DNA of 64,000 bases from Solirubrobacterales bacterium (GTDB taxonomy: Bacteria > Actinomycetota > Thermoleophilia > Solirubrobacterales > 70-9). Shown piece by piece: positions 10,071 through 54,507 of the stretch; position 1 is the first letter of the stretch, and each line of letters begins with the position of its first letter. The notes under the pieces were generated by a model. That model searched no databases. It was given only the letters and a program-made list of their open reading frames with translations, and was not told the DNA's origin. A program made the translations under genes and the position numbers. The DNA lies in assembly GCA_050180135.1 (NCBI GenBank), contig JBFXEM010000001.1, positions 2,667-66,666 of the forward strand. Direction: 5' to 3'.

Positions 10071-10556
10071 GTGAGCGAATCGCTGCCGAGTTCAGTCCAG
10101 CGCGTGGCCCGAGCCTTGGAGGCCGCGGACCACCCATCCGCTATCGAGATCCTCGGCTCCAGCACCCACACCGCTCAAGAGGCCGCGGATGCGCTCGGTG
10201 TCGAGCAGCGGCAGATCCTGAAGTCGATGGTCTTCCGCGGCACGCCCAGCAACCGCCTGGTAGTCGTCATCGTTGGCGGCCATCGTCAGGTCGACCTCGC
10301 GCGGGTCGGCGAGGAGTTGGGCGAAGTGATCAAGCGAGCCGACCCCGACTGGGTTCAGCAGCGGACCGGCTACCCGATCGGCGGGATCCCCCCGCTCGCA
10401 CACGACACTCCCTCCACCGTCTTCATCGACCGCGAGGTGCTGGGCGAGGAGACCCTCTGGGCCGGCGCGGGAAGTGCCAACGCGATGTTCCGGACGAGCG
10501 GGACGAGCCTGGCCTTGCTCACGGGTGGCGTCGTCGCCGACGTCGCCAAGCGCTGA
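10071..10556 (+). CDS. YbaK/ProX-type aminoacyl-tRNA deacylase (trans-editing) domain protein, copy 1
   Basis: Distal part of ORF 9411..10556, start taken at GTG 10071. 'THTAQEAADALGVEQRQILKSMVF...VVVIVGGHRQVDLARV...TGYPIGGIPPLAH...LWAGAGS'. Paralog of 29421..29921. Confidence 0.7.
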   Translation: MSESLPSSVQRVARALEAADHPSAIEILGSSTHTAQEAADALGVEQRQILKSMVFRGTPSNRLVVVIVGGHRQVDLARVGEELGEVIKRADPDWVQQRTGYPIGGIPPLAHDTPSTVFIDREVLGEETLWAGAGSANAMFRTSGTSLALLTGGVVADVAKR

Positions 10557-10580
10557 GCCGAGGCGCGCCCCGCCCCAGCC

Positions 10581-12332
10581 CTACCCGGCCGCCTTCCGGA
10601 GCTCAGCCGTCTCGTCCCCTCGCACCGCCTGCGCCTCGACGTCGACGGCGACGCCGTAGATCTCGCGTGCTTCATCGGCAGTGATCAGGTCGTCGAGGAC
10701 GTCGTCGAGCACCCGCTGCGGATCGCGCGCCAACGGCGAGCCGACACCGCCGCCGTTCGGCGAGACGATGCGAAGCACCCGGCCCTTCGGGATCACCCGA
10801 CCCGGCTGCTTCGAGCTCAGCCGCTCGCGGCGATCCGGGTCCTCGAAGTCGAGGGCCATTTCGCTCGGCGCTCCGGAGAGACCGCCATCCATTCCCCAGG
10901 GAGCGTGCAGCTGACCGTCCGCCTCGCTGGAGAAGAACCCGTCGCTGAGGTAACGGTACTCGCGCACGCCACCCTTGCCACCGCGGAACTCCCCGTGCCC
11001 CGGAGGGTTCGCATTCAGCTGCCACTGCACACAGCGCAGCGGGAACTCGGTCTCGATCTCCTCGATCGGGGCGCAGCGGGTGTTGGCGAAGAGGGTGTCG
11101 ACGGCGTCCATCCCGTCCCTCCCCCAGGTGGCGCCGTAGCTGCCCTCGTGGATGTCCATGTGGATCCAGTACTTCTCGTCCACCACGCCGCTGTAGCTGA
11201 GCACGGCGAGCGCCCCGGTGCCGGCGCAACAGAGCTCCGGAACGACCTCGGAGAACGCTTTGACCAGGGTGTCCGCGAGCGTCAGCGCCGGCAGGACGCG
11301 GGCGATCGTGGGCGCCGGGAAGGTCGGGTTGACCATCGTCCCCTTCGGCGCGATGACCTCGATCGGCCGCATCAGGCCACGATTCTGCGGTACCGCCTCG
11401 TGGTCCCAAGTGTCGATCAGAACCGAGCGGACCACGGTGAAGATGGCGCACATCACCGTCCCCTGCAGCGGCATGTTCAACGGCAGGTCATCCAGCTGCG
11501 GCGAGGTTCCGGTGAGGTCGACCTCGATCGAGTCGCCCTTGATCCGCAAGGTGACGGCGAACCGCAGGTTCTTGCTCGCGGGGTCGTCGCGCTCGTCGAA
11601 ACCGTCGGCGAATCCCTCGGCGAAGTACTCGCCATCCGGGACCTTCGCGATCTCGGCGCGCAGCACCCGCTCGGAGTAATCCTCGAACCACTTCTGGGTG
11701 GCGAAGACCTCGTCCTTGCCGACCTCGTCGATCAGCGACAGCAACCGCCGGGCGCCGAGCTCGCAGGCGGCGATCTGCGCCTGCATGTCTCCGACGACGA
11801 TGTCCGGGATGCGAACGTTGTCTTCGATCATCTCCCAGAGCACCGCATTGTCCTCACCCTCGCTGCGGATCTTCAGGGCGCGGAGACGAAGCCCGCAGGC
11901 CCAGTCGTCGACCGCGTCGATCACCGACGTGCCGGGCTTGGAGCAGCCGATCTCGAGGTGGTGCGCGGTCGTGCACGACCAGCCGATCAACTCGTCATCG
12001 CGGAAGATCGGCGCGAAGAAGCCGATGTCCGGCGAGTGCGACGCGCCGCGGTAGGGGTCGTTGTGGATGAAGACGTCTCCGGGTCGGATCGTGTCGCCAC
12101 GTTCCTCGACGGTCTTCAGCACACCCTGCACGTACCAAGGGATCGCCCCCATCTGAAAGGGCGTCGTGTCGGCCTCGCAGAGCTGCCAGCCGTCTTTGTC
12201 GGTCAGCGCGGCGCCGATGTCCTCGGATTCCTTGATGATGATCGAGAAGCCCATGCGGATGAGTTTGCGGCTCATCTCGAGGGCGATCTGGTTGAGGCGA
12301 CCCTGGACGACCTGTGCGGTGATGGGATCCAT
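10581..12332 (-). CDS. hyuB: hydantoinase B/oxoprolinase family subunit (HyuB-like), copy A
   Basis: The real start, 'MDPITAQVVQGRLNQIALEMSRKLIRMGFSIIIKESEDIGAALTD', is at ATG 12332 after AAGGAG. Colinear with 40204..41949. Confidence 0.9.
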   Translation of the reverse strand: MDPITAQVVQGRLNQIALEMSRKLIRMGFSIIIKESEDIGAALTDKDGWQLCEADTTPFQMGAIPWYVQGVLKTVEERGDTIRPGDVFIHNDPYRGASHSPDIGFFAPIFRDDELIGWSCTTAHHLEIGCSKPGTSVIDAVDDWACGLRLRALKIRSEGEDNAVLWEMIEDNVRIPDIVVGDMQAQIAACELGARRLLSLIDEVGKDEVFATQKWFEDYSERVLRAEIAKVPDGEYFAEGFADGFDERDDPASKNLRFAVTLRIKGDSIEVDLTGTSPQLDDLPLNMPLQGTVMCAIFTVVRSVLIDTWDHEAVPQNRGLMRPIEVIAPKGTMVNPTFPAPTIARVLPALTLADTLVKAFSEVVPELCCAGTGALAVLSYSGVVDEKYWIHMDIHEGSYGATWGRDGMDAVDTLFANTRCAPIEEIETEFPLRCVQWQLNANPPGHGEFRGGKGGVREYRYLSDGFFSSEADGQLHAPWGMDGGLSGAPSEMALDFEDPDRRERLSSKQPGRVIPKGRVLRIVSPNGGGVGSPLARDPQRVLDDVLDDLITADEAREIYGVAVDVEAQAVRGDETAELRKAAG

Positions 12333-12343
12333 TGCTAGCTCCT

Positions 12344-14419
12344 TCAGGCGGATGCGCCCGCAGCGGGCGGAATCTCGATGACAAGGTTGTTGCTGGGGTC
12401 TCGTTCGACCGTGCAATCGGGCGGCACGAGGGTGGTCGAGTCGACCTGGGTGACGATCGCCGGCCCCGGCACCCGCTCGCCGACCGGCAGCTTTTCGTGG
12501 GCGTAGACGGACACGTCGACGGTGGACACGCCGTCCCCGGAGTCGAAGCTCGCGGAGGTGTCGCCGACGTGCGCCTCTTCGACGCTGCCACCCGAGACGG
12601 TTGGGGCGCTCAGCCTCGGCAGGCGGCCGGTACCGGTCAGGCGCAGGTTGACGAAGGCGATGCCCATGTCCGTGAACGCGTGGCCGAACTCCTTGCGATG
12701 GGTCTCGTGGAAGTCCTCGCTGAGGCCGGCGATCGTCTCCGCGTCGATCCGACGGGACTGAAGTGGGACTTTGAGCTCGTAGCTCTGCCCCTGGTACCGC
12801 AGGTCGGCGGCCCACTCGATCGTGATGTCCTCATCAGCGATCCCGTCTTCCCTCAGGCGTTCGCGCATCACCTCCTCTTCCGCCTCGTAGCGCCGGCCGA
12901 GCTCCTCCGGGTCGACGCCCGCCAACGGCTGCAAGTAGGACTGGGTCACGTCGTAGCGCAGGTCGGTCGTAAGCAGACCGCTTGCCGAGGTGACGCCGGG
13001 GTGCTCGGGGATGAGCACGCGGGTGATCCCCAGCAGGCGTGCGACCTCTGCCGTCTGCAGCGGACCGCCGCCGCCAAAGCCCGCGAGCAGGAAGTCACGC
13101 GGATCGAGACCACGCTCGATCGTCTTCGTGCGCAGCGCGGCCGCCATGCTCTCGTTGACGACGCGGATGATGCCCGCCGCCGTCTCCAGCAGCCCGAGGC
13201 CGAGCTTCTCGGCGACCGCGCCGACCGCCTGCTCGGCAAGGTCGGGCCGCAGCTCCAAGCCGCCGGCGAGCTCGGAGGGAAGGCGCCCGAGGACGACGTT
13301 GGCGTCGGTCACGGTGGGCTCCGTCCCGCCACGCCCGTATGCGGCCGGCCCCGGTCGAGCGCCGGCGCTGCGCGGACCGACATGCAGACCGCCGGCCTCG
13401 TCGACGTACGCGACGCTGCCGCCGCCGGCGCCGATCGTCTCGATGTCGATCATCGGCACCATGATCGGATAGCCCGCGATCCAGGTATCGCGGGAGCGCG
13501 CCTCGACCAGCCCGCGTTCCGCGACGATCCCGATGTCGGCGCTGGTCCCACCGACGTCGAGCGTCGCCAGGTACTGCTTGTCGCCGCCGGAGGCCCAGAT
13601 CCCGCCCATGACCCCGCCGACCGGTCCCGACAACAGCAAGGTCACCGGCCGCTCCATCGCCGCTTCCGGCTTGGCCGTGCCGCCGTTGGACTGCATCACG
13701 TAGAGCACGTCCTCGGCGCCGATCTCGCGCAGGCGATCGTCGAGACGGCCGATGTAGGAGCGAGTGTCCGGACCGACGAACGCGTTCACCGCGGTGGTCG
13801 TGAAGCGCTCGAACTCGCGGAACTGGGGCACGACGCCGCTCGACGTGCAGACGAAGGCATCGGGCATGACCTTGCGGACGATCGCCGCCGCCTCGTCCTC
13901 GTGGTCGGGGTTCAGGTAGGAGAAGAGGAAGCAGATGGCGACCGAGTCGACTCCTTCGGCGGCGAGCTCGCGGGCGGCGTTGGCGACGGCCTCGCGGTCG
14001 AGTTCCTCGACCACCTCGCCCGAGGGCGGAACCATCCGCTGGGGAACTGGCCGGCGATGGCGTCGGCGGACCAGCGGCCGGGCCTGCCAGGGAATCTCCT
14101 GGCGGATCGAGTAGCTCATCGGGCGCTGGTGACGACCGATGTGGGTGACGTCGCGGAAGCCCTCGGTGGTGATCATCCCGACGGTCGCGCCGTTGAACTC
14201 GAGGATCGCGTTGGTGGCCACGGTCGTCCCGTGGATCAGCAGACCGATGTCCGCCGGAGCGCACCCGGCCTTGGCGGTGATTTCCTCGGTGCCACCGGCG
14301 ATCGTCGCGGCCGTGTCCTCGCCACTGGAAATCTTCAGAACCCACGACTCCAGGGTTTCGGTGTCGTGAAGTATGAAGTCGGTGAAGGTTCCACCGACGT
14401 CGATACCGAGTAGCTTCAT
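12344..14419 (-). CDS. hyuA: hydantoinase A/oxoprolinase family subunit (HyuA-like), copy A
   Basis: 'MKLLGIDVGGTFTDFILHD', 'DVGGTSADIGIV'. 691 aa. The start abuts the M20 stop (TAGATG). Confidence 0.9.
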   Translation of the reverse strand: MKLLGIDVGGTFTDFILHDTETLESWVLKISSGEDTAATIAGGTEEITAKAGCAPADIGLLIHGTTVATNAILEFNGATVGMITTEGFRDVTHIGRHQRPMSYSIRQEIPWQARPLVRRRHRRPVPQRMVPPSGEVVEELDREAVANAARELAAEGVDSVAICFLFSYLNPDHEDEAAAIVRKVMPDAFVCTSSGVVPQFREFERFTTTAVNAFVGPDTRSYIGRLDDRLREIGAEDVLYVMQSNGGTAKPEAAMERPVTLLLSGPVGGVMGGIWASGGDKQYLATLDVGGTSADIGIVAERGLVEARSRDTWIAGYPIMVPMIDIETIGAGGGSVAYVDEAGGLHVGPRSAGARPGPAAYGRGGTEPTVTDANVVLGRLPSELAGGLELRPDLAEQAVGAVAEKLGLGLLETAAGIIRVVNESMAAALRTKTIERGLDPRDFLLAGFGGGGPLQTAEVARLLGITRVLIPEHPGVTSASGLLTTDLRYDVTQSYLQPLAGVDPEELGRRYEAEEEVMRERLREDGIADEDITIEWAADLRYQGQSYELKVPLQSRRIDAETIAGLSEDFHETHRKEFGHAFTDMGIAFVNLRLTGTGRLPRLSAPTVSGGSVEEAHVGDTSASFDSGDGVSTVDVSVYAHEKLPVGERVPGPAIVTQVDSTTLVPPDCTVERDPSNNLVIEIPPAAGASA

Positions 14420-15766
14420 CTACGCGCTCCTAGCCTGTTTGCGGTCTTGACTTTCTGAGCCGGACGCGAGCGAGAGCAGCGCGTTCAGCATGATCTCCAC
14501 GCCGAGAGCCGCGTCTGCGGTCTCTGCGTGCTCGAGCGGCGAGTGACTGATGCCGTCCCGACAGGGGACGAAGACCATCGCGCCGGGGACGTTCCTGGCG
14601 ATGTGCATCGAGTCGTGGCACGACCCGGACCTCATGGTCATGTGGCGCACGCCTGCTTGGCCAGCCGCCGCATCGAGTGCGGCAATCACAGTGTCGTCCA
14701 TCGGCGTGGGCATCACCCGGAAGCGCTCGGAGTGCTCGATCTGCAGGCCGTGTGCCGACGCCGAAGCCTCGGCATCGGCAAGGGCCCGCCCGATGATCTC
14801 GTCGATCTCGTCGCTGTCGGGCCCGCGAACGTCGAGGGAGAGACGCGCGGCACCGGGCACGACATTGATCAGACCGGGGTCGAGCTCGTACTCGCCGACC
14901 GTCGCCACCACGCCGGAGAGACTGGCCTTCGCAAGGTCGAAGATGTTCACCGTCAGCCGAGCCGCCTCGGCACCGGCGTCCCGGCGGATGTCCATCGGCG
15001 TACTCCCGGCGTGATCCGCGCTGCCGGTGAAGCGGACGTCGGCATGCACGATGCCGACGATCGCGTCGACGATTCCGATCGGAGTCTCGGCGTCCTGCAG
15101 CAGCCGCCCTTGCTCGATGTGAAGCTCCATCCATCCGAGCATCTGGTCGAGGGCGTTACCGCACTCGCGCCAGCGGGCGGGCTCGAACCCTGCGGCTTCC
15201 GCATGCGCCCAGAAAGGCTCCCCGTCGTCGAGGGCAGGCAGGCTCCGCAGCAGCTCCTCCGTCGTCGCCTGCGCGATGATCGCCGAACCGAGCATGGTGT
15301 GGCCGAACCCCGACCCCTCCTCCTCGATCGGGACGACGACCTGCAGCGGCAGGTCCAACCCCAGCTCGGACTCGAGCCGGCAGAGCTCGAGCGCGGCGAC
15401 CACGCCGAGCGTGCCGTCGTATTTGCCGCCGTTGCGGTTGGAGTCGCAGTGCGATCCAATGCCGAAGGTCGGGACCCCGTCTGGCCGGTTGCGGGCAATC
15501 AGATTCCCGACCGGGTCCAAGCTCGCCCGGTAGCCGAGTTGCTCGAGCGCCTCGGCGAAGAAGCGAACGGTATTCGCGTACTCGGGGGTGTAGGAGTAGC
15601 GGCTGATCGCGGTCGAGGAGCGGGTGTAGTCCGGTCCGCTCACCGTCTCGAGGTCAGCTTCGATGCGCCGCGCGCTCGAGGCCCGATCGATGGTTACCGC
15701 CAAGTCTGCGCCTCCCTGGTTCGAGATTCCACGATTTGGTTCTTTGTCTGCTTGGCCCATTTGCAT
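14420..15766 (-). CDS. M20 Zn-amidohydrolase, N-carbamoyl-amino-acid / allantoate amidohydrolase family, copy A
   Basis: 'GIGSHCDSNRNGGKYDGTLGVVAALE' matches the AmaB/AllC-type metal motif. ATG 15766 overlaps the upstream TGA by 1 nt. Confidence 0.85.
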   Translation of the reverse strand: MQMGQADKEPNRGISNQGGADLAVTIDRASSARRIEADLETVSGPDYTRSSTAISRYSYTPEYANTVRFFAEALEQLGYRASLDPVGNLIARNRPDGVPTFGIGSHCDSNRNGGKYDGTLGVVAALELCRLESELGLDLPLQVVVPIEEEGSGFGHTMLGSAIIAQATTEELLRSLPALDDGEPFWAHAEAAGFEPARWRECGNALDQMLGWMELHIEQGRLLQDAETPIGIVDAIVGIVHADVRFTGSADHAGSTPMDIRRDAGAEAARLTVNIFDLAKASLSGVVATVGEYELDPGLINVVPGAARLSLDVRGPDSDEIDEIIGRALADAEASASAHGLQIEHSERFRVMPTPMDDTVIAALDAAAGQAGVRHMTMRSGSCHDSMHIARNVPGAMVFVPCRDGISHSPLEHAETADAALGVEIMLNALLSLASGSESQDRKQARSA

Positions 15767-17349
15767 CAACCCATGTACGCCTGCTCGACGATCCGGTCAG
15801 CGCTGAGGTCCTCGCGTCGCAACTCGGTGACTAGACGGCCGTCGCGGATGACCAGTACCCGGTCGCAGAGATGCGCCAGGTCCTCGTACTCAACGCTGGC
15901 GACCAGGACCGCCATACCGCGCTCGCTGGCGCGCTCGACCTCGGCGAAGATCTGCTGGCGGGCGCCGATGTCCACGCCCTGAGTCGGCTCGTGGAGGATC
16001 ATCACCGCGGGTTCGGTCTCGAACCACTTCGCGACCAGGATCTTCTGCTGGTTGCCACCGCTGAACGTCGAGAAGCTCGCCTCCGGAAGCGGCGGTCGCA
16101 CGTCGAACTCCTCAAACAGTTCGGCCGCGCGAGCGCGCTCCTCGCGATGGCGCAGCCGCCATCCCCGGAAGTAGCGCATCAAGGTGGGCAGCGACAGGTT
16201 CTCGAGGCCGGTCGCCTCACCGACACCGCCGCGGATGGCGCGGTCGGCCGGGAGCAACGCCAGGCCCTGGCGCAGCGCCGCGCCGGGCTTCAGGCCTGAG
16301 ATCTCGGTTTTGCGGCCAAGGATCTCCACCGACCCCGTCGCCGGCTCAGCTCCGACGAGCACGTAGGGAAGTTCCTCGAACCCCATCCCGACCAGTCCCG
16401 TCACGCCAAGGATTTCTCCGCGGCGAAGCGTGAACGAGATGTCCTTCAGCAGCTGACCCGAGGCGCCCTCGACCTCCAGGACGGTCTCGCCCTTCTCGCT
16501 GTGGTGCTCGGGGTAGAGCTGGCCCATCTGCCGCCCCAGGATCTGGCTGATCAGGCCCGCGGGATCCATGTCCGCGGCGTCCGAGGTCGCCACCCGGCGA
16601 CCTTCACGCAGGACCGTGACCTTGTCGGCATGGTCGGTGACCTCGTCGAGGCGGTGGGTGACCATCAACACGGCGTGGCCCTCGGAGGTGGCTCGACGCA
16701 CGGATACGAACAGCTCTTTGACGGCGTCCCGGGGCAGGTACACCGTGGTCTCGTCGAGGACGAGCAGGCCCTGCTCGACGTGGCTCAGGCCTTCGAGCGC
16801 CCGCACGATCGCGACGATCGCCCGATCGGCATGGGAGAGCGACTCGATCGTCGCGTCGGGATCGGCCTCGAAGCCGAATCTCTCCATGTGCTCGCGCAGG
16901 TTGCGACGTTCACGGCCCCATGGGATGCGCCAGAGACCGGTGGTTTCGTAGCGGCCAACGCGGAGGTTCTCGAGCACAGTGAGCGAGGGCACGAGGCCGA
17001 GGTCCTGATGGACGAAGGCAAACCCCAGGCCACGCGAATCGGTTGCACGAACCGGCAGCTCGTAGGGCTCCCCGCGAACCAGCATCTCGCCGGCGGGCTC
17101 GGGGCGGTGGTAGCCCGTGAGCACCTTGATGAAGGTCGACTTCCCCGAGCCGTTTTGGCCGAGCAGCGCGTGGACCTCGCCGCCGAGCAGGTCGACCGAG
17201 AACTCGTCGAGAACCTTGCGGGCCCCGAACGACTTCGAGAGCCCGCGCACCTGCACCACGGGCGGGCCCGCCACCGCCGCATCGGCGGTGGATACTCCCG
17301 AGCCTTGCGGCTCGGGAGTATCTTCGCTCGTGCTTATTCGACCTGCCAT
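15766..17349 (-). CDS. ABC transporter ATP-binding protein, duplicated-ATPase CUT2 (RbsA/MglA-like) type, copy A
   Basis: Walker A 'GQNGSGKST', second-domain signature 'FSGGNQQKILVAKW'. ATG 17349 is chosen by alignment with copy B. 16-nt overlap with the SBP gene. Confidence 0.9.
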   Translation of the reverse strand: MAGRISTSEDTPEPQGSGVSTADAAVAGPPVVQVRGLSKSFGARKVLDEFSVDLLGGEVHALLGQNGSGKSTFIKVLTGYHRPEPAGEMLVRGEPYELPVRATDSRGLGFAFVHQDLGLVPSLTVLENLRVGRYETTGLWRIPWGRERRNLREHMERFGFEADPDATIESLSHADRAIVAIVRALEGLSHVEQGLLVLDETTVYLPRDAVKELFVSVRRATSEGHAVLMVTHRLDEVTDHADKVTVLREGRRVATSDAADMDPAGLISQILGRQMGQLYPEHHSEKGETVLEVEGASGQLLKDISFTLRRGEILGVTGLVGMGFEELPYVLVGAEPATGSVEILGRKTEISGLKPGAALRQGLALLPADRAIRGGVGEATGLENLSLPTLMRYFRGWRLRHREERARAAELFEEFDVRPPLPEASFSTFSGGNQQKILVAKWFETEPAVMILHEPTQGVDIGARQQIFAEVERASERGMAVLVASVEYEDLAHLCDRVLVIRDGRLVTELRREDLSADRIVEQAYMG

Positions 17350-18557
17350 AGCTTCTTGTAGTTGGATTTGAAGTCCGTGGTTCCGTACCACGATTCTTCG
17401 CTTGCATCGAGGTCGATTTCGTCGAGGTTTTCCTCGGTGAACATCCGCAGCGGAATGTTCTCGTCGTCGACGGGAGGCTGGCCGGAAAGGACACGGAGCG
17501 ACTGGTCCGCAAGCCCCCAGCCCAGCCAGGTGTACGCGCCGCCGACATCGGCGGCCATGGTGTCACCCTGGGCCATCATTTCCACTACGGCCGGGGTGGC
17601 GTTCAGGCTCACTACCCTGACGTCCGGTTTATTCGCCTGTTCGACGGCCGGCACCACGGTGATCGCCATGCCGTCGTAGAGCGGCATCAGGTATTTCGCA
17701 TCGGGATTCGAAAGCAGCGTCGACCGCGTCAGCGTCGGCAGACGCTTTCCCCAGTCGGCGATTGCCACGTTTTCGATGTTGAAGTCACAGTCCGGGCAGA
17801 GCTCGTCGAACTCGTTTTCGATACCCGCGAGCTCGTCTTCGCCGCTGGTCACTTCTTCGGAGACGAAGATCGTGCCCTTCGCATCCCCCTCGCTGTCGGC
17901 GATCACGTAGTCGGCCATCAGCGCGCCGGCGCATGAGTAACAGGACGTACCGGAAGCGGCGACGGTCGGCAGCTGGACCTTCCCGGGGTCGCCGTTGATC
18001 GCTTCGATCACTTTGACACCGGCACGATCGGCGTCGGCGACGGCGCCCGCGACGAGTTTGGGAGAGATCGACATCAGGACGACCGCGTCGTAGTTCTGCG
18101 AGATCGCCGTTTCCATCCCGCGGTTGAATTCCGACACCTGGCCCTTACCGTCGAACAGGTCGACCTGAACGCCGCCTTCTTTGGCGCCTTCGGACATCGC
18201 GTTGTAGATGTTTTCGACCACGGGGATCTTCGCGTCTACCGCGATGTAGAGAACTTTTTTGCCATCCGCTTTCTTCGCATCGAAGGCCGGGCCCGGCTGT
18301 TCCCATTTCGGTTCGACCATCGCCGCCTGCAGCCGTTCCCTGGCGGTCTCCACCGCGGAGTCGCCGCCGCCTTCGCTCGAACTGGTGCCTTCGGATCCAG
18401 CCGTCTCCGAGCCGGAGCTGCCCGAATCCGAATCGCTCGAGCCGCAGGCCGCGAGAAACAGCACAGTCAGAAGCGCCATCAGCGCGAGCAAAGTGCGGTA
18501 GGCGCCGGTCCTGCGCCGACTGGCTCGGGGAACGCCCCTCTTATCGGTGTTCGACAT
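17334..18557 (-). CDS. ABC transporter substrate-binding lipoprotein (type I periplasmic-binding fold, sugar-family), copy A
   Basis: Lipobox 'FLAACGSSDS', Ser/Gly linker, PBP-like body. ATG 18557 follows AAAGGAGAGA. Confidence 0.85.
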   Translation of the reverse strand: MSNTDKRGVPRASRRRTGAYRTLLALMALLTVLFLAACGSSDSDSGSSGSETAGSEGTSSSEGGGDSAVETARERLQAAMVEPKWEQPGPAFDAKKADGKKVLYIAVDAKIPVVENIYNAMSEGAKEGGVQVDLFDGKGQVSEFNRGMETAISQNYDAVVLMSISPKLVAGAVADADRAGVKVIEAINGDPGKVQLPTVAASGTSCYSCAGALMADYVIADSEGDAKGTIFVSEEVTSGEDELAGIENEFDELCPDCDFNIENVAIADWGKRLPTLTRSTLLSNPDAKYLMPLYDGMAITVVPAVEQANKPDVRVVSLNATPAVVEMMAQGDTMAADVGGAYTWLGWGLADQSLRVLSGQPPVDDENIPLRMFTEENLDEIDLDASEESWYGTTDFKSNYKKLWQVE

Positions 18558-18640
18558 CAATCTCTCCTTTTGGTTTGACTTTCGGCCTTCCCAGGCCGGA
18601 CGGCTTCATCCACGTCTTCGGCTTTCCCGTAACCGAACTG

Positions 18641-19552: not shown

Positions 19553-19670
19553 GGCGAACCGGTAGCTGAAGTCGACGACGATTTTCCGGCGAGCGGGCGC
19601 GGAAGGCTCGCTCTGCTACGGTTCGTTTGTTGGCGCGGTTGTAGCCAAGTTCACTGTTGTCTATTCCCCT

Positions 19671-19686
19671 GTGCCGCTTGCGGCAC
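19671..19686 (-). promoter_or_regulatory. hairpin GTGCCG-cttg-CGGCAC in the predicted 5' leader of ABC/hyu operon A
   Basis: Lies between the predicted -10 (19697-19702) and the permease start. A hairpin sits at the equivalent place in copy B. Confidence 0.3.
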
Positions 19687-19696
19687 ATCCAGGTGG

Positions 19697-19726
19697 GTTA
19701 TATCAGACCCACGTTGACAGATGCAA
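19697..19726 (-). promoter_or_regulatory. sigma-70-like promoter of ABC/hyu operon A (TTGCAT-18-TATAAC on the minus strand)
   Basis: The -35 is the reverse complement of atgcaa (19721-19726). The -10 is the reverse complement of gttata (19697-19702). Position and sequence are conserved with copy B (49428-49456). Confidence 0.4.
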
Positions 19727-19772
19727 TAGTCCAGTTAGGCAATTGCTGCCCTAAGACATAGGGACACGTGCT

Positions 19773-21105: not shown

Positions 21106-22790
<1,685 letters not shown>

Positions 22791-22803
<13 letters not shown>

Positions 22804-26014: not shown

Positions 26015-26256
26015 GTCAGAAGATGGCTCCACTGTTCGTTTGTCCGCCCCGAAAAACAGCCGACACAGAGCTACCGGCACTCTGCATCGGCCATTATTTG
26101 CCCCATGCTACTAGGTCAAATGGGATCGTGCTCGCAGCCTGCGTGGGCAGGCGAGATCAGGGGACTCGACGTCGCCCGCGCCTTCTGCGCGATGGATAGT
26201 CGGCAGATCGCAATCGGACCGTGACAAGCCCAGCGATCTGTGACAAAGTTGAACCG

Positions 26257-26481: not shown

Positions 26482-26484
26482 CCG

Positions 26485-47063: not shown

Positions 47064-48289
47064 AGCTTCTTGTAATTGCCCTTGAAGTCCGCTTTTCCGT
47101 ACCAGTCGACTTCCGGGCCTCCAAGGTCGATTTCATCGAGATTTTCCTGGGTGAACATCCGCAGCGGAATGTTCTCGTCCTTGACCGGTGGCACTCCGGC
47201 CAACACACGGAACGTCTGATCCGCAAGGCCCCAGCCCAGCCACACGTTCGCCCCCCCGACGTCTGCCGCCATAACTTCACCTTCGTTCATCATTTCCATG
47301 ACCGACGGGGTCGCATTGAAACTGACCACCTTGACATCCGGTTTGTTGGCCTGCAGGACGGCCGGCACGATGGAGATCGCCATACCGTCGTAGAGCGGAA
47401 TCATGTAGTTGGTCTCTGGATTCGACAGGAGCGTCGATCGAGTCAGAGTCGGAAGCCTCTTGCTCCACTCGGCAATCGGCACGTTCTCCGTGTCGAAATC
47501 GCATTCCGCGCACAGTTCATCGAACTCGCTCATGAGCCCTTTGACCTCGTCGGTCCCGCTAGTCACTTCCTCGGAGACGAAGATGGTGCCGTTGGCATCG
47601 CCGCCGCTGTCTGCAATGACGTAGTCCGCCATCTGCTTGCCGGCGCAGGAATAACAGAACGAGACCGAGGCAGAAACGCCAGGTAGTTGCACCTTGCCGG
47701 GGTCCCCGTTGATAGATTCGATCACCTTGACCCCCGCCCGGTCAGCCTCGGCCACGGCGCCCGCCACCAGTTTCGGTGAGATCGAAAACAGGATGACGGC
47801 ATCGTAGCTCTGGGAGATGGCGGTTTCCATTCCTCGATTGAACTCGGACACCTGACCCTTGCCATCGAACTGGTTCGCCTGCACGCCGACTTCGGCCGCG
47901 GCCTCAGCGAATGCCTTGTAGATCGTCTGAACCACGGGTATCGATGAATCGACCCCTATGAAGAGGACCTTTTTGCCTGTCGCCTTGCTGGCGTCGAAGG
48001 CGGGACCCGGCTGTTTCCATTCCGGTTCGGCCATCGCTGCCTGCAGTCTTTCTTTCGCCTCGCTGACGGGATCGCCTGCCGCGCCGCCGTCGTCGGTCGA
48101 TTCGCCCGTTCCGCCGGAGCTGGAGGCTTCGGTCGCAACGGAACCTTCGTCATCGGTACCGGAACCGCTCGAGCCGCAGGCGGACAGTCCGATGACGGCC
48201 AACAGGGCCAAAAAGACCAACAGAACACGATAGGTACCCAGCCGCCGTCCGACTGCGGATACATCTCTCTCGTCGGTGTGGTGTGACAT
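47048..48289 (-). CDS. ABC substrate-binding lipoprotein, copy B
   Basis: Lipobox 'GLSACGSSGS'. RBS AGAGGAGAGAG. Colinear with copy A. Confidence 0.85.
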   Translation of the reverse strand: MSHHTDERDVSAVGRRLGTYRVLLVFLALLAVIGLSACGSSGSGTDDEGSVATEASSSGGTGESTDDGGAAGDPVSEAKERLQAAMAEPEWKQPGPAFDASKATGKKVLFIGVDSSIPVVQTIYKAFAEAAAEVGVQANQFDGKGQVSEFNRGMETAISQSYDAVILFSISPKLVAGAVAEADRAGVKVIESINGDPGKVQLPGVSASVSFCYSCAGKQMADYVIADSGGDANGTIFVSEEVTSGTDEVKGLMSEFDELCAECDFDTENVPIAEWSKRLPTLTRSTLLSNPETNYMIPLYDGMAISIVPAVLQANKPDVKVVSFNATPSVMEMMNEGEVMAADVGGANVWLGWGLADQTFRVLAGVPPVKDENIPLRMFTQENLDEIDLGGPEVDWYGKADFKGNYKKLWKTG

Positions 48290-48369: not shown

Positions 48370-49422
48370 TTACCCGCCCGTCCGGGCGCGGCCGACGAGC
48401 TTCGAAAACGTCACTGCGACGATCAGCGAGAAGCCGTAGAAGAACTGTTCGACCCAGCCGATCGCCCCGACCAATTGCAGTCCCGTGATGCCGGTCACCA
48501 GGAAATAGACGGATACAAAAGAGCCCCAGGGATTGAAGCGGCCTGGGGTGATAGCGGTTGCTCCGAGGAAGGCGGCAGCGAACGCCGGCAGCAGGTAGCT
48601 GGGACCGACCGTCGGATCCGAGCCGCCGAGCGTACCGGCGAGGACGACGCCGGCCAGGGCGGCCAAGAACCCCGAAAAGACGAGTGACCCCGCCCGGATC
48701 GCTTTGACCCTGACGCCGGTGAGGCGGGCGACCTCGGGACCGGCACCGACGAAGTACAGGTACCGACCAAGCGGAGTGTAGGAGTACACGTACCAGATCA
48801 GGACGGTCAGCGCGAGGCCGAACCAGAAGGCGAGTTGGACACCGAGGAACTGCGTGCGGGCAAGATCGACGAAGCCATGGTCGATCCCACTGAGCGTCGA
48901 ATTTTGCACCCCGACCGCGATTCCGGTCAGAAGCGTTCCCATCCCTAACGTGACGACGAGCGACTCGACTCCGACGACGACCACGAAGAAGGCGTTGATC
49001 AGGCCGGCCATGACTCCTGCTGCCAAGGCGAGCATGATGGCGAGGTAGATCGGCAACCCGACCGTGACGTTGAGCCAGCCCATGAGCACGAGGGACAGAC
49101 CCAACATCCCCGCAACCGAAAGATCGTACTCGCCGGCGCTGAGGGGAACGATGAGTCCCAGTGTCAGGATCAAAAGAACCGCCTGGGAGCCGAAGATGGT
49201 TTGAAAGTTCGAGGCGGTGAGGAACGTGTCTGGCTCCAGAAGGCCGAAGACGACGATCAACGCGATCCAGGCCAGGACGAGCGCAAATCGATAGCCGAGG
49301 TCAACGACTCGCACCCGTCGCGGCTGCCCGGTCGCCTGAACGTCCGTGGCCTTCGTCGTTTGCGTTGTGATCGCGGGGTCCACTATTGGTCGGATCCGTT
49401 GTGCCGTAAGAGACACAAGCAA
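48370..49422 (-). CDS. ABC permease (RbsC/AraH-like), copy B; start uncertain
   Basis: The longest ORF starts at TTG 49422. That position lies at or inside the predicted promoter/TSS. GTG 49314 (VRVVDLGYRFALVLAW...) is favoured by comparison with copy A. Confidence 0.8.
   Translation of the reverse strand: MLVSLTAQRIRPIVDPAITTQTTKATDVQATGQPRRVRVVDLGYRFALVLAWIALIVVFGLLEPDTFLTASNFQTIFGSQAVLLILTLGLIVPLSAGEYDLSVAGMLGLSLVLMGWLNVTVGLPIYLAIMLALAAGVMAGLINAFFVVVVGVESLVVTLGMGTLLTGIAVGVQNSTLSGIDHGFVDLARTQFLGVQLAFWFGLALTVLIWYVYSYTPLGRYLYFVGAGPEVARLTGVRVKAIRAGSLVFSGFLAALAGVVLAGTLGGSDPTVGPSYLLPAFAAAFLGATAITPGRFNPWGSFVSVYFLVTGITGLQLVGAIGWVEQFFYGFSLIVAVTFSKLVGRARTGG
49399..49418 (-). promoter_or_regulatory. 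hairpin TTGTG-N10-CACAA in the predicted leader of ABC/hyu operon B
   Basis: Sits at the same position relative to the -10 box as the copy-A hairpin. The flanking 'tgtgccg' is conserved between the copies. Confidence 0.25.
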
Positions 49423-49983: not shown

Positions 49984-50150
49984 GTGGAGCAGTTTGAGCA
50001 GATCAGGCGCGACCGCGATTGCGAGGGGCTGTCGATCAGGGAGCTGGCGCGCCGCCACGGCGTCCACCGCCGGGCGGTCCGCCAAGCGCTGGCCTCGCCG
50101 CTGCCGCGGCCGAAGCGCAAGCCCTGCACCTGTCCGGCGCCGAAGCTCGG
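49984..50150 (+). mobile_element. 5' fragment of an IS21-family istA transposase gene
   Basis: 'MEQFEQIRRDRDCEGLSIRELARRHGVHRRAVRQALASPLPRPKRKP' matches the IstA N-terminal HTH. Similarity is lost after ~55 codons. Confidence 0.5.
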
Positions 50151-50443
50151 CCTCAACCGGGTCATCTCCACGGCGCGGCCACTTCAGGCCGTCGCACCGG
50201 GGCCAGTGCAAGCCGTCGCTCCGACGAAGTCGCCGCCTACGCGCGATCTGCCTGATCACTCGGTCGTGACTGGCCCGAGCCGCTGCTCGGGCAACCGAGG
50301 AGCGAGCGGCTGATCGCGCCCCGCGTGCGGGAGCGGGGTCGACAGGCTCGATCCCGCTGAGACCCCTGAGCGGGGCACGACAGGTGACGGTAGCGACCTG
50401 AGGCTTTAGGCTGGGCGCGCGGGCATGTTCGTCATAGACTGCT

Positions 50444-51697
50444 ATGGCAAAAATACCGGACCAGACCAAACCAAGCAGCGAGCCTGCGGCGGGCCTGCCG
50501 CCGTGGGTCACCATCTTCGGTGCGATCCTCGTCTGCACTTGGACCGGGAACCAGTTCACCCCGCTCCTGCTGCTCTACGAGGCCAACGACCACTACTCCG
50601 TGGTGACGCTCAACGTCCTGCTCGGCGTGTACGTGCTCGGACTTGCGCCGACGATGTTGGTCGGCGGCGCACTCTCGGACCGCTACGGCCGTCGGCGCTG
50701 CCTGATCGCGGGCGTCCTGGCCTCGGTTGCTGCGAGCGCCACGCTAGCCTTCGGTGAGTTCGGCGCGGTGAGCCTGGTGGTTGGGCGCCTGCTCTGAGGC
50801 GTCGGTGTCGGTGCCTCGGCGGTGGCCGGGTCGAGCTGGCTGAAAGAGGTCTCGCAGCCGCCGTACGACGCTCGCGCCGATGCGACTGCCGGTGCTCGTC
50901 GCGCCTCGGTGGCCTTCACGCTGGGCTCCTCGCTTGGCGCCGTGGTCGCGGGTTCGATCGCCCAGTGGACCGACGCGGGGGGAGTGGCGCCGTTTCTCGT
51001 CCACATCGCCATCACGGCGCCCTTCGCGTTCCTGCTGGCTCAGATACCCGAGCCAAGAACGGTGGCCCGCACCCGGATTCGGATGGATGCAGATGAGAAA
51101 CGTCAGGCGTCATTGCTGCTCGTCGCGTTCGCCCCCTGGCTTTTTCTCGCCGCGGGAGTCGGATACGGATACCTGCCACTACTTCTCGACCACCGTACCG
51201 AGGGTTGGGGTCTTGCCTACGCCACCCTCCTGAACGTCATCGCGATGACGATCGCCGGGGTGGTCCAGCCACTGGCTCGCCGGTTCGTCGTCCGCCTCGG
51301 ACGTGTCGCCCTCGCCATACCGCTCGCGATCTTCGGTTCCGGCTTCGGCCTGTCCGCCATCGCAGAGGCCGCTCAGTCACCTGCTCTGGGGCTCGCCGTC
51401 AACGTGATCTTCGGCATCGGCATCGGCTGCGGACTGCTCACGGGCCTGCTCGAGGTCCAGCGGATCGCCCGCGGGCATTCCAACCTGGCGCAGCTCACCG
51501 GGGCCTTCTACACGGCCGCTTACCTCGGATTCCTCGCCCCGGTCGCGCTCGCCCAGCTGGCCCTGTATGTCCCGGTCTCGACCTTGTTCACCTGCGTCGG
51601 CGGCCTTGCCATAGCCGCCTCGCTCTACGTCTTCGGCGCGACCAAAGGCCGCGGCGGGATGGTCGCGACGCCCTCCCGGCCTCGCCACTCGCGTTGA
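50444..51697 (+). pseudogene. MFS transporter interrupted by a single in-frame TGA (50795-50797)
   Basis: ORFs 50444..50797 and 50822..51697 are in the same frame. Read-through gives '...SLVVGRLL*GVGVGASAVAGSSWLKEVS...', a typical MFS TM4-TM5 region. 'GGALSDRYGRRRCLIAG' is the MFS motif A. Confidence 0.6.
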
Positions 51698-51943: not shown

Positions 51944-52702
51944 CTAGGACGGCTGCATCCGCAGCGCACCGTCGAGCCGGATCACCTCGCCGTTGATCAT
52001 CCGGTTGGTCGCGAGGTGCGCGACCAGGTCGGCGAACTCGCCCGGATCTCCGAGCCGCGACGGGTACGGGACGTTGGCCGCCAACGATTCGCGCGCTCGC
52101 GCTGGCAGCCCGGCCAGGAGCGGCGTGTCGAAGAGGCCGGGGGCGATCGTCACTACCCGGATCGCGCTGTCCGCCAGCTCGCGGGCGACGGGCAGGGTCA
52201 GCCCCACCACACCGCCCTTCGAGGCGGCATAGGCGACCTGGCCGACCTGACCATCGTAGGCGGCGATCGAGGCGGTATTGACGCAGACGCCGCGGTCGCC
52301 GTCCGCGCTCTCCGGGTAGGAGGACATCGCTCCGGCGGCGCAGCGCAGCACGTTGATCGTGCCCAGGAGGTTGACTTCAAGCACGTTGGCGAAGTTCTCG
52401 AGCGGGGTCGGACCGTCGCGGCCGAGCAGCTTGGTCGGCGTTCCGAGGCCGGCGCAGTTGACGCAGATGCGCAGCTCGCCGAGCTTGGTCGCACTCGCCA
52501 CCGCGTGCTCGACCGAGCCGGCATCGACGACGTCGACCTCGGCGGCGCGGCCGCCGATCTCGGCGGCAAGGCTCTCGGCGCGGTCAGCCACTAGGTCTGC
52601 GACGAGTACCGTGGCACCCTCCGCGGCGAAGCGGCGTGCGGTTGCGGCTCCCAGTCCTGAAGCGCCGCCGAAGACGGCGGCGACAGCACCCTCGATCTTC
52701 AT
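51944..52702 (-). CDS. short-chain dehydrogenase, type-II 3-hydroxyacyl-CoA dehydrogenase (HSD17B10)-like
   Basis: 'AAVFGGASGLGAATARRF', 'NTASIAAYDGQVGQVAYAASKGGVVGLT' (YxxxK), 'NGEVIRLDGALRM'. Confidence 0.85.
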   Translation of the reverse strand: MKIEGAVAAVFGGASGLGAATARRFAAEGATVLVADLVADRAESLAAEIGGRAAEVDVVDAGSVEHAVASATKLGELRICVNCAGLGTPTKLLGRDGPTPLENFANVLEVNLLGTINVLRCAAGAMSSYPESADGDRGVCVNTASIAAYDGQVGQVAYAASKGGVVGLTLPVARELADSAIRVVTIAPGLFDTPLLAGLPARARESLAANVPYPSRLGDPGEFADLVAHLATNRMINGEVIRLDGALRMQPS

Positions 52703-52806
52703 CTTTCTCCTTACGGGGGGAAAATATCCCAGACCACTATGCCATATAGTCTACCTAGAGCGTTGCTCTATTGGGTCATTAACTCGACGAGCGGAGGCTG
52801 AGGGAT

Positions 52807-54507
52807 ATGGAGAAGACGATTGCGGAGGCGCTCGCCGAGGGGCTGGTCGCGCAGGGCATCGAGCGCGTCTACAGCCTGCCCGGCAGCCACATGAAGCCGC
52901 TCTGGCACGCCCTCGACAAGCTCGGCGTGCGGGTCGTCACCGCCCGCGACGAGCGCGCAGCGGTGCACATGGCGCAGGCCGAAGCGGAACTGCGCAACCG
53001 GCTGGCGGTGGCGATCCTCACTGCCGGCCCCGGCCTCACCAACGGCGTCACCGGGCTCGGCGCCGCCTACCTCGACCGGGCGCCGGTGCTGGTGATCGGC
53101 ACTCGAGCGCCGCTGCTGCAGGACGGGATGGGGGCGCTCGAGGAAATCGAGCAGGTCGCGGTCGTCGCTCCGCTCTGCCGCGCCACCTACGCGGTGCTCG
53201 ATTCGCGCCACGCCCTCCCCCGCTTCGACCTCGCGATCTCGGCGGCGATCGGCGATGACGGCCCGCCCGGGCCGGTCTACTACGAGCTGCCCTCCGACCT
53301 TTTCAAAGCGCCGCTGCCGCGACCCTACGCCGAGATCCGCTGCCGCAGCCGCAGCGTCCGCCTCCCCACCGAGGCCGATGTCGCGGCGGCGGTAGAGCTG
53401 CTGCGCTCAGCCCGGCGGCCGCTGGTGATCGCCGGCCGCGAGGCGCTGGTGGCGGCGGACCAGCTGCCGCGCTTCGTCGCCACGGCGGGCGCCGCCTACC
53501 TCGATACGCGAGCCAGCCGTGACCGACTCTCGCGCCGGGTCGAGTCCTTCGTGCCGGCGCTGCGCGGCCGGGCGATGGCCGAGGCCGACCTCGTCGTCAC
53601 GCTCGGCCGGCCGCTCGACTTCGAACTCGCCTACGGCTCGCCGGCGGCCTTCCGGACGGCGCGGGCGTTTCTGCGGATCGGCCGCGGCGCCGAGGACGTC
53701 AGTGCCAACCGCCGGGGAGACGTCGAGCTGCGCGCCGACGTCGGCCCGGCGCTAGCGGCGCTGCTCGCCGCAAGCGCCGCCCCTGAGCGGCCCGACCGCG
53801 AGTGGCTGGCGGCGCTGGTGGACGAGAACGCAAGCAAGGAGAGTCGCTTCGAGGAGCGCGTCGCCGCAGCCGAGGAACTCGAGGACGGCCTCCATCCGCA
53901 CCAGCTGCTGGCGGCGGTCAACCGCGTCGTTGACGAGGAGACGATCGTTATCGCCGACGGCGGCGACATCCTCTCCTGGGCCCGCACCGGCCTGCGGGCG
54001 CCGACCTACCTCGACCTCGGCGCCTTCGGTTGCCTCGGGACCGGAGTTCCCTACGCGGTCGCTGCCGCGCTCAGCAACCCGGGCCGGCGGGTGATCGCGG
54101 TGGTCGGCGACGGCGCCTTCGGCTTCAACGCAATGGAGCTCGAGACCGCCGCCCGGGAAGGCGCCCAGATCGTCGTCGTCGTCGCCAACAACAGCGCCTG
54201 GAACATCGAACGCGCCGACCAGCTCGAGAACTACGGCGGCGAGGTGCTGGGCACCGAGCTATCGAGCTGCGACTTCGGGATGCTGGCCCGGGCGCTCGGC
54301 GCCAGCGGCGAGAAAGTCGAGCGCGTCGCCGACCTCGACGCGGCGCTCGAGCGAGCGCTAGCGGCTGCACCGGCGGTAGTTGACGTCCGGGTCAGCCGCG
54401 AGCCGGCCTCGGCCGACACCAAGAGCGGCCTCGCCGCCGTCCCCCGCTCGCACGTGCTGTCCGCTTGGGATCGCGACGAGCGGGCCTGGCTCGATCAGAG
54501 CGAGTAG
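52807..54507 (+). CDS. ThDP-dependent enzyme, oxalyl-CoA decarboxylase / 2-hydroxyacyl-CoA lyase-like
   Basis: 'LTAGPGLTNGVTGLGAAYLDRAPVLVIG'. The ThDP motif 'VVGDGAFGFNAMELETAAREGAQIVVVVANNSAWN' has AFGF..ME.ET, recalled as typical of the OXC/HACL clade rather than acetolactate synthases. Confidence 0.8.
   Translation: MEKTIAEALAEGLVAQGIERVYSLPGSHMKPLWHALDKLGVRVVTARDERAAVHMAQAEAELRNRLAVAILTAGPGLTNGVTGLGAAYLDRAPVLVIGTRAPLLQDGMGALEEIEQVAVVAPLCRATYAVLDSRHALPRFDLAISAAIGDDGPPGPVYYELPSDLFKAPLPRPYAEIRCRSRSVRLPTEADVAAAVELLRSARRPLVIAGREALVAADQLPRFVATAGAAYLDTRASRDRLSRRVESFVPALRGRAMAEADLVVTLGRPLDFELAYGSPAAFRTARAFLRIGRGAEDVSANRRGDVELRADVGPALAALLAASAAPERPDREWLAALVDENASKESRFEERVAAAEELEDGLHPHQLLAAVNRVVDEETIVIADGGDILSWARTGLRAPTYLDLGAFGCLGTGVPYAVAAALSNPGRRVIAVVGDGAFGFNAMELETAAREGAQIVVVVANNSAWNIERADQLENYGGEVLGTELSSCDFGMLARALGASGEKVERVADLDAALERALAAAPAVVDVRVSREPASADTKSGLAAVPRSHVLSAWDRDERAWLDQSE

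Follow-up and report, generated by a model that had tools for sequence, protein, structure and literature searches.

Amino acids with a quaternary alpha-carbon can be neither transaminated nor oxidized at C-alpha. For the degradation of 2-aminoisobutyrate (Aib), only the decarboxylase DgdA and the AibH monooxygenase are listed (PMC7782822). The closest described system to the one reported here is the HCL-HcmAB-MeaH pathway for 2-hydroxyisobutyrate (2-HIBA), with an optional thiamine diphosphate (ThDP)-dependent lyase (PMC7176365, PMC13188929). We analyzed 64,000 nucleotides, hereafter the window, of an 86-kb contig (JBFXEM010000001.1, positions 2,667 to 66,666) from a Solirubrobacterales metagenome-assembled genome (MAG). 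The window holds two copies of a B12-dependent mutase cassette, two hydantoinase/carbamoylase/ABC importer (Hyu) modules, a DgdA homolog and a ThDP lyase. As in Aquincola tertiaricarbonis and in ibc cluster 2 of Mycolicibacterium ELW1, a split adenosylcobalamin (AdoCbl) mutase that groups with HcmA and has its active-site Asp and Gln is clustered with a MeaB-type chaperone, a ligase and a GntR regulator, with Hbd and a ThDP lyase nearby. In contrast to those systems, the mutase belongs to a separate clade and the ligase to another ANL subfamily, a conserved ammonia-lyase-like hotdog domain and a RidA domain are added, and the neighbors of such cassettes are amino-acid and peptide genes rather than the diol-oxidation genes mpdBC. 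Judging from homology and gene context, we give about an even chance to the window being a mobile-element-rich catabolic island for quaternary-alpha-carbon amino acids, most likely Aib and possibly isovaline.

In the proposed pathway, a FadD-like ligase would convert the amino acid to 2-aminoisobutyryl-CoA. Because the alpha-carbon is quaternary, a skeleton rearrangement would have to precede beta-elimination; the split mutase, loaded by MeaB and with its cofactor supplied by PduO, would shift the thioester carbon to yield 3-aminobutyryl-CoA. A hotdog domain resembling Kal, the 3-aminobutyryl-CoA ammonia-lyase of lysine fermentation, would then produce crotonyl-CoA and ammonia, and hydration followed by Hbd would lead to acetoacetyl-CoA. 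DgdA and its LysR regulator would provide a parallel, CoA-independent pyridoxal phosphate route to acetone, and a ThDP lyase with a Glu at position 128 probably offers a B12-independent route from the same CoA ester, which it may cleave to formyl-CoA and an imine. A RidA domain devoid of its usual Arg would hydrolyze the imine or enamine by-product. The least secure step is the role of the Hyu, M20 and ABC genes, which might act as a lineage-specific feeder by importing a hydantoin-type cyclic ureide and freeing the amino acid.

Genes were called by a method based on GC content at third codon positions (GC3), and the proteins were scanned against Pfam and NCBIfam. The two mutase cassettes comprise the following features, with Hbd and PduO next to copy A.

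19773-20636, minus strand: Hbd, 3-hydroxybutyryl-CoA dehydrogenase (3HCDH_N and 3HCDH; NF005875 415 bits, cut-off 319)
20651-21085, minus strand: B12-binding small subunit of the mutase, copy A (PF02310; 144 aa by the gene call on an identical Logan contig)
21106-22803, minus strand: large subunit of the mutase, copy A (PF01642 659 bits; PDB 4R3U, HcmA, 584 bits)
22791-23696, minus strand: MeaB-type G-protein chaperone, copy A (Pfam MeaB; TIGR00750 235.6 bits, just under the cut-off of 240.75)
23680-25182, minus strand: acyl-CoA ligase, copy A, ANL, FadD-like (AMP-binding and AMP-binding_C)
25184-26014, minus strand: RidA-hotdog fusion, copy A (Ribonuc_L-PSP and 4HBT)
26485-27048, plus strand: PduO-type cobalamin adenosyltransferase (PF01923; TIGR00636 174 bits, cut-off 108)
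32415-32840, minus strand: small subunit of the mutase, copy B (Pfam)
32863-34560, minus strand: large subunit of the mutase, copy B (Pfam)
34548-35453, minus strand: MeaB, copy B (Pfam)
35437-36942, minus strand: ligase, copy B (Pfam)
36944-37744, minus strand: RidA-hotdog fusion, copy B (Pfam; NF052388 96.4 bits)

All genes named in the original prediction were found by Pfam and NCBIfam where it had placed them, in two diverged copies; Hbd and PduO adjoin copy A and score above their NCBIfam cut-offs. The proposed start at 10071 needs correction, since the stop codon of HyuB (10581) comes ~500 bp later.

In both copies, the large and small B12 subunits are encoded separately, with MeaB in the same operon (PF01642, PF02310, PF03308). 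A PDB search returned HcmA as the best solved relative of the large subunit, at 584 bits for 4R3U versus 478 bits for human methylmalonyl-CoA mutase (MCM). At three substrate-defining sites, copies A and B and 14 homologs carry RQV, STD and AQN, where HcmA and IbcP of ELW1 have RQI, S(T/V)D and AQK. Both copies and all 14 clade members thus keep the HcmA-type Asp (STDFD) and Gln (AQ), whereas the Ile found at position 90 in HcmA and IbcP is invariably Val in the window clade, and the Lys that follows the active-site Gln in those enzymes is replaced by Asn. We take Asp117 of HcmA to bind the polar substituent, and Ile90 and Asp117 to be significant positions; the active-site Gln, which stands in place of Arg207 of MCM, is presumably significant as well. 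A group of ~55%-identical mutases, mainly from Myxococcota, shows F/A/Q as in isobutyryl-CoA mutase (ICM), and a few sequences show the MCM-like Y/A/R. In a neighbor-joining tree, the window clade was monophyletic in 50/50 bootstraps and sister to HcmA plus IbcP in 43/50, with 48-55% identity between the window mutases and HcmA-type enzymes. Because they have their own three-site signature and a separate place in the tree, we classify the window mutases as a distinct HcmA-like clade, outside the characterized HcmA enzymes.

The ligase departs further from the described system. Its best PDB match was 8WEV, a feruloyl/fatty-acyl-CoA synthetase (216 bits), and the 26 PDB sequences matching at E <= 1e-40 included no 2-hydroxyisobutyrate-named ligase. 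The window ligases had no tblastn match at E < 1e-5 in the ELW1 plasmid stretch holding the HCL-type gene ibcN, and the HCL-type ligase protein of ELW1 had no match at E < 1e-10 in three loci with related cassettes (L085-L087). An HCL identity was rejected on the grounds of the ELW1 comparison, the 8WEV match and the absence from L085-L087, and sequence comparison assigns the ligase to a different, FadD-like ANL subfamily. The resemblance to HcmAB/MeaH/HCL noted in the original prediction hence holds for the split mutase, MeaB and the HcmA match but breaks down at the ligase.

The cassettes could nonetheless be ordinary 2-HIBA modules, converting 2-hydroxyisobutyryl-CoA to 3-hydroxybutyryl-CoA for Hbd, with the ThDP lyase producing acetone and formyl-CoA as in Aquincola, Mycolicibacterium ELW1 and Actinomycetospora, and with the hotdog protein as an accessory thioesterase or dehydratase. 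HcmA is after all the best structural match, and the equivalent of Asp117 is kept; published hcl-hcmAB-meaH clusters likewise combine a mutase with MeaB, GntR, Hbd and a ThDP lyase, and the window lyase reaches the 2-hydroxyacyl-CoA lyase cut-off and keeps E493. We find this explanation quite improbable in view of a ligase that is not of the HCL type and of the invariant Ile-to-Val and Lys-to-Asn changes in a clade apart from HcmA. The hotdog and RidA domains, the gene neighborhoods and a lyase residue, described below, also argue against it.

The hotdog half of the fusion scored 101.6 bits (E 3.5e-29) in copy A and 96.4 bits (E 1.4e-27) in copy B against NF052388, the profile for 3-aminobutyryl-CoA ammonia-lyase, and matched the beta-alanyl-CoA ammonia-lyase 4MTU (E 2e-9). 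In a plasmid collection, its best tblastn matches, 39% identical, came from the lysine fermenters Fusobacterium and Acetoanaerobium. By these matches the hotdog half is a homolog of 3-aminobutyryl-CoA and beta-alanyl-CoA ammonia-lyases, which supports an earlier guess that the fusion deaminates a 3-aminoacyl-CoA. The window domain spans the whole Kal profile and matches Acl2 (4MTU), but it differs from both in being borne by Actinomycetota and fused to RidA in this lineage, and from Kal in being embedded in a B12 mutase operon and not among the kam/kdd/kce lysine genes. The RidA half of both copies is without the carboxylate-binding Arg105 (motif YPAS, not PAR), unlike archetypal RidA, a 2-iminoacid deaminase. 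A conserved hotdog of the beta-aminoacyl-CoA ammonia-lyase family and RidA domains fused to it or to the lyase would be out of place in a 2-HIBA module.

We compared the cassette with the eight loci whose mutases are closest (74-94% identity), which come from Solirubrobacterales, Haloechinothrix, Sphaerisporangium and further actinobacterial genomes, and with six further contexts (Amycolatopsis sulphurea, Jiangella alkaliphila, Nonomuraea sp. and three more contigs). The hotdog-ligase-MeaB-mutase order was kept in seven of the eight, and the hotdog gene lay directly upstream of the ligase gene in the same number and in all six further contexts. These six have the same cassette and GntR, with the V/D/Q signature in the five with readable DNA. 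GntR adjoined the cassette in 6/8 closest loci (within L002-L008) and in L085-L087 and L090-L092. Other genes of the window were found near the closest eight loci less regularly (ThDP lyase, 4/8; YbaK-like and ECH_2, 3/8 each; DgdA and PduO, 2/8 each). The copy B cassette proteins are 90-95% identical to their orthologs in loci L004 and L005. Soil metagenomes contain many homologs of the hotdog domain, and cultured strains have them too. Conservation of the neighborhood in relatives, raised in the original prediction, was found for the mutase cassette but, one close relative excepted, not for the Hyu module.

In the six further contexts, the neighbors included peptidases (M19, S9, S58, M14), M20, an amidase and a hydrolase of PF00144; transport was represented by an amino-acid permease and a peptide ABC transporter of the Opp type. 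The ThDP lyase also occurred there with a second, paralogous ligase. Together with DgdA, this peptidase and transporter context points to a peptide-derived amino acid rather than a hydroxy acid, and the peptidase, transporter, DgdA and tRNA-editing neighbors speak against a 2-HIBA module. Comparative genomics favors an amino-acid substrate such as Aib.

In cultured actinomycetes, a Peptidase_M19 dipeptidase gene lies immediately before the cassette (L086:8877-19214, L085:8834-9874 and contig JGI 3300047160). In Jiangella, genes for an S58 (DmpA/BapA-type) aminopeptidase, for the ThDP lyase and for another, paralogous ligase come after the cassette.

The amino acid could be one other than Aib, with DgdA playing a separate role. 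The cassette might process alanyl-CoA via beta-alanyl-CoA to acrylyl-CoA, act on larger alpha-methyl amino acids, or handle beta-aminoisobutyrate or 3-aminobutyrate from beta-peptides or pyrimidines. Among solved structures, the hotdog domain is indeed closest to a beta-alanyl-CoA ammonia-lyase, an S58 aminopeptidase lies within the Jiangella cluster, the M20 enzyme is also related to beta-ureidopropionases, and DgdA is found beside a minority of cassette loci. We regard this as rather unlikely, since ordinary amino acids have simpler routes and, by our reasoning, only a quaternary alpha-carbon explains the succession of ligase, mutase and beta-elimination. Moreover, the nearest relatives of the mutase act on a C4 tertiary skeleton, and three distant genomes also have DgdA, an enzyme specific for 2,2-dialkylglycines, next to the cassette.

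DgdA lies between the two cassettes, in a region that also holds PduO and the following genes.

27039-28100, minus strand: ECH_2, 3-hydroxyisobutyryl-CoA hydrolase-like (PF16113; NF004127 408 bits, cut-off 274)
28155-29183, plus strand: GntR-family regulator (PF00392)
29421-29921, plus strand: YbaK/ProX-like protein with an aminoacyl-tRNA trans-editing domain (PF04073)
29936-31330, minus strand: DgdA, 2,2-dialkylglycine decarboxylase homolog (PDB 1D7R 537 bits)
31388-32290, plus strand: LysR-type regulator (HTH_1 and LysR_substrate)

The prediction of a close DgdA homolog with a divergent LysR gene was borne out: the protein matched dialkylglycine decarboxylase of Burkholderia cepacia (1D7R) at 537 bits, whereas the next family reached 230 bits. 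Alignment to 1D7R showed that Q52, W138, M141, S215, K272 and R406 are conserved and that Y301 is replaced by Phe. The LysR gene starts 57 bp from the dgdA start, and the same pair occurs in L005, with a LysR ortholog 81% identical. The arrangement thus resembles DgdA/DgdR of B. cepacia in overall similarity, pocket and catalytic residues and the divergent upstream regulator, but differs from it by the Tyr301-to-Phe change and by its position between two B12 mutase cassettes. DgdA orthologs adjoin the cassette in L002, L005 and L087, and the Nonomuraea ortholog is 58% identical. The YbaK-like gene is also found beside DgdA or the cassette in L002, L004 and L005, where ECH_2 is kept as well. 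The YbaK-like protein may deacylate tRNA mischarged with a non-protein amino acid and so protect translation.

At the far end of the locus, a ThDP lyase gene is paired divergently with a short-chain dehydrogenase (SDR) gene, as in L004, and a second such pair is in decay.

37921-38222, minus strand: decayed SDR fragment (tblastn with the intact SDR)
38324-40015, plus strand: frameshifted ThDP lyase (tblastn; only TPP-domain fragments detected)
51944-52702, minus strand: SDR, divergent from the ThDP lyase (adh_short)
52807-54507, plus strand: ThDP-dependent acyl-CoA lyase, actinobacterial 2-hydroxyacyl-CoA lyase (HACL) family (NF058623 611 bits, cut-off 600)

The decayed segments at 37921-40015, matched by tblastn in several frames, are 47-60% identical to the intact pair; they are remnants of a second SDR/lyase pair and correspond to the intact arrangement in L004.

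The OXC/HACL-like enzyme had been placed in the clade of the actinobacterial lyase, and its score of 611.1 bits against NF058623 (actinobacterial 2-hydroxyacyl-CoA lyase, cut-off 600) agrees with this. It scored 440 bits against AcHACL (PDB 7PT1), in which the catalytic E493 is positioned by Gln128, Gln41 and Gly43 (PMC8760513). The window enzyme keeps E493 and the cofactor Glu but has Glu, Pro and Ser, respectively, at these three positions. All cassette-linked homologs and 119/120 nearest homologs share the Glu at the Gln128 position, and this difference from the characterized enzyme argues against a 2-HIBA module. A further difference from AcHACL is a C-terminal extension of ~145 aa at the position of RidA, for which a hydroxyacyl-CoA lyase has no obvious need. 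It is present in 17/120 nearest homologs (within P0247-P0341), for which precomputed Pfam lists PF01042. The RidA domains fused to the lyase and to the hotdog domain belong to the same subfamily (34-45% identity), and those on ThDP homologs have Thr, Ser, Ile, Ala or Met at the Arg105 position, never Arg. As a RidA domain is common to them, both in the fusions and in the L092 cluster described next, the lyase, the ammonia-lyase-like hotdog and the mutase would belong to one pathway. The RidA domain in turn suggests that an imine or enamine arises as an intermediate; a hydroxy-acid pathway would make neither.

In L092:1-17160, a lyase-RidA fusion is clustered with the hotdog, the ligase and a V/D/Q mutase. 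The same cluster encodes a glutamine-synthetase-like protein, Peptidase_C26, an SDR, an aldehyde dehydrogenase and a diiron protein resembling the small subunit of ribonucleotide reductase. These extra genes resemble an ipu/puu-type module for amine oxidation through gamma-glutamylation, which could supply Aib from a hindered amine, e.g., tert-butylamine or 2-amino-2-methylpropanol.

The Hyu modules comprise the following genes.

10581-12338, minus strand: HyuB, copy A (Pfam Hydantoinase_B)
12344-14419, minus strand: HyuA, copy A (Pfam Hydant_A_N, Hydantoinase_A, Hydant_A_C)
14420-15769, minus strand: M20 amidase, copy A (TIGR01879 285 bits, cut-off 204; best PDB 3N5F)
15766-17349, minus strand: double ABC ATPase, copy A (two ABC_tran stretches)
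17334-18560, minus strand: binding protein, copy A (Peripla_BP_4)
18641-19552, minus strand: permease, copy A (BPD_transp_2)
40204-41949, minus strand: HyuB, copy B (Pfam)
41959-44031, minus strand: HyuA, copy B (Pfam)
44048-45373, minus strand: M20, copy B (Pfam; TIGR01879 above cut-off)
45480-47063, minus strand: ABC ATPase, copy B (Pfam)
47048-48289, minus strand: binding protein, copy B (Pfam)
48370-49422, minus strand: permease, copy B (Pfam)

Copy A forms a single co-directional run on the minus strand, from 26014 down to 10581, in the order RidA-hotdog, ligase, MeaB, mutase large subunit, mutase small subunit and Hbd; a spacer of ~120-220 bp then splits Hbd from permease, binding protein, ATPase, M20, HyuA and HyuB. 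In copy B the modules are reversed, the Hyu/ABC genes (49422-40204) coming first and the mutase cassette (37744-32415) second, with the decayed SDR/ThDP pair between them. The copies are diverged paralogs with 69-88% protein identity and 75-81% DNA identity, alike for the Hyu and mutase modules.

Pfam and TIGR01879 searches bore out the HyuA, HyuB, M20 and ABC importer assignments in both copies, each of which encodes a three-domain HyuA, HyuB and a hydantoinase/carbamoylase-family M20 amidase together. The best PDB match of HyuA was the N-methylhydantoinase 7HK5 (581 bits), with 416 bits for 6YRA, a caprolactamase-family structure deposited as 5-oxoprolinase, and 193 bits for acetone carboxylase. 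Both M20 copies pass the TIGR01879 hydantoinase/carbamoylase cut-off and are closest to the N-carbamoyl-L-amino-acid hydrolase 3N5F. The importer is of the CUT2 type. The combination of HyuA/HyuB, an ATP-dependent hydantoinase-type ring-opening pair, with an M20 enzyme of the N-carbamoyl-L-amino-acid amidohydrolase family resembles N-methylhydantoinase and the hyuA/hyuB/hyuC genes for hydantoin utilization of the Pseudomonas sp. NS671 type; here, in contrast, there are a CUT2-type importer, no racemase and an adjoining B12 mutase cassette. Naming 5,5-dimethylhydantoin as the substrate would be a guess. A search of a literature library found no described pathway linking a hydantoinase to such a mutase, as the original prediction had stated.

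Since acetone is a product of both DgdA and the lyase, HyuAB was also considered as an acetone carboxylase. This was rejected on the grounds of a missing gamma-subunit gene, the length of HyuB (581-585 aa) and the HyuA scores of 193 bits to the acetone carboxylase beta subunit versus 581 bits to N-methylhydantoinase.

The Hyu/ABC modules might instead be unrelated to the mutase cassettes, i.e., mobile cassettes that arrived by the mutase cassette in a rearrangement-prone region and serve another cyclic amide or ureide, such as N-methylhydantoin, a lactam or a 5-monosubstituted hydantoin. This is a serious possibility, if somewhat short of probable. HyuA is closest to N-methylhydantoinase, the window has ParB, a DDE transposase and several pseudogenes, and the module is missing near the cassette in most of the closest loci and in all six further contexts. 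In the MAG STL-ACT49, a Hyu module with proteins 87-96% identical to those of copy B lies beside a B-type cassette, enclosed by a recombinase and by transposases of the IS1595 and DDE types. As the linkage recurs in only one close relative and is flanked there by transposases, we consider it lineage-specific and associated with mobile elements. On the other hand, the modules are adjacent twice in the window, in different orders and with equal divergence between A and B, arguing that the linkage has persisted. Elsewhere, the cassette adjoins varied modules that could each release an amino acid (peptidases, a gamma-glutamyl amine module), a pattern that a carbamoylase fits.

The copy A upstream regions 19552-19772 and 26015-26484 share the 10-mers GGGGAATAGA, ACAAACGAAC, CCCGCTCGCC and AGCCTTCCGC, which are not collinear. 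A candidate shared operator, AAAAGTCC, was rejected: with one mismatch, it occurs 16 times in the window versus 16.7 expected by chance. As this count is no higher than chance, we do not claim co-regulation of the Hyu and mutase genes.

HyuAB homologs 66-69% identical to those of the window occur in a recurrent cluster in L083:7900-21300 and L088:7800-19300, with two to three AMP-ligases, MaoC, ECH, a luciferase-like oxygenase, CN_hydrolase and a GAF/PucR-type regulator; L083 has a second HyuAB pair as well. From its gene content, we regard this cluster as another uncharacterized ring-opening plus CoA pathway. Across the next-closest HyuAB homologs (62-69% identity), the surrounding genes are combinations of CoA ligases, MaoC, ECH, luciferase-like oxygenases and hydrolases of the nitrilase superfamily.

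Several observations weigh against an Aib island fed by the Hyu modules. All functions are predicted by homology and genomic neighborhood. An -OH and an -NH3+ substituent cannot be told apart by the Asp and Gln signature of the mutase, and the cassette resembles 2-HIBA clusters (mutase, MeaB, GntR, Hbd, ThDP lyase) such as ibc cluster 2 of ELW1. The hotdog scores of 101.6 and 96.4 bits, over positions 2-119 of the 120 of NF052388, are under the equivalog cut-off of 160. DgdA adjoins the cassette in only 3/14 other loci, with one more possible. As a conserved neighborhood, the hydantoinase-mutase link that had been proposed is not supported, the Hyu module being absent within 10 kb of the mutase in 7/8 closest loci and in all 72 more distant ones. 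The next-closest HyuAB homologs (62-69% identity) are in unrelated contexts, and no convincing operator common to the Hyu and mutase promoters was found.

More broadly, though this is less likely than not, Actinomycetota might possess a complete amino analog of the 2-hydroxyisobutyrate network, in four parts with 2-aminoisobutyryl-CoA as the hub. It would comprise the first mutase of the MCM family to rearrange an alpha-aminoacyl-CoA, with a Kal-like lyase deaminating 3-aminobutyryl-CoA; a ThDP 2-aminoacyl-CoA lyase (Glu128 subfamily) yielding formyl-CoA and a ketimine; an Arg-less RidA hydrolyzing the ketimine, fused to the lyase or the ammonia-lyase; and interchangeable feeders, i.e., hydantoinase/carbamoylase, peptidases acting on Aib-rich peptaibols, or the L092 amine module.

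A search of the literature library for aminoisobutyryl-CoA, several synonyms included, found no paper mentioning any. If confirmed, the predicted amino-acid version of the 2-HIBA B12 pathway would constitute new enzyme chemistry. The CoA-dependent B12 route would be the third bacterial route for Aib and would conserve all four carbons, an amino-substituted substrate would join the short list of acyl-CoA mutase reactions, and a ThDP lyase cleaving 2-aminoacyl-CoA esters might come to light. Engineering of the families of 2-hydroxyisobutyryl-CoA mutase and lyase for synthetic carbon assimilation and C-C bond formation is under way (PMC11599936, PMC8760513), and we suggest that amino-accepting variants could possibly be used to make beta- or alpha,alpha-dialkyl amino acids. 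The pathway also suggests a way for soil actinomycetes to exploit fungal peptide antibiotics that are rich in Aib; industrial hydantoins and hindered amines are possible further sources. As the cassette is present in cultured Jiangella, Amycolatopsis and Nonomuraea, the prediction is directly testable.

In the plasmid collection, the window had no close DNA relatives, with only 60-80% matches over the mutase gene. No Rfam family, cobalamin riboswitch included, and no tRNA gene was found in the window, and promoter and terminator scans gave nothing exceeding shuffled controls. A ParB-like protein (509 aa) is encoded beside an 810-aa protein without a Pfam match at 1495-5619, and a DDE_Tnp_1_4 transposase gene lies at the far end of the window (60760-62166). 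Possibly, the whole 86-kb contig is a plasmid or mobile island. The region 49984-51697 contains an HTH fragment, with weak HTH_23 and Sigma70_r4_2 matches, and a split MFS transporter gene consisting of a 117-aa N-terminal piece and a 291-aa open reading frame without a Pfam hit. These are probably pseudogenes left by rearrangement.

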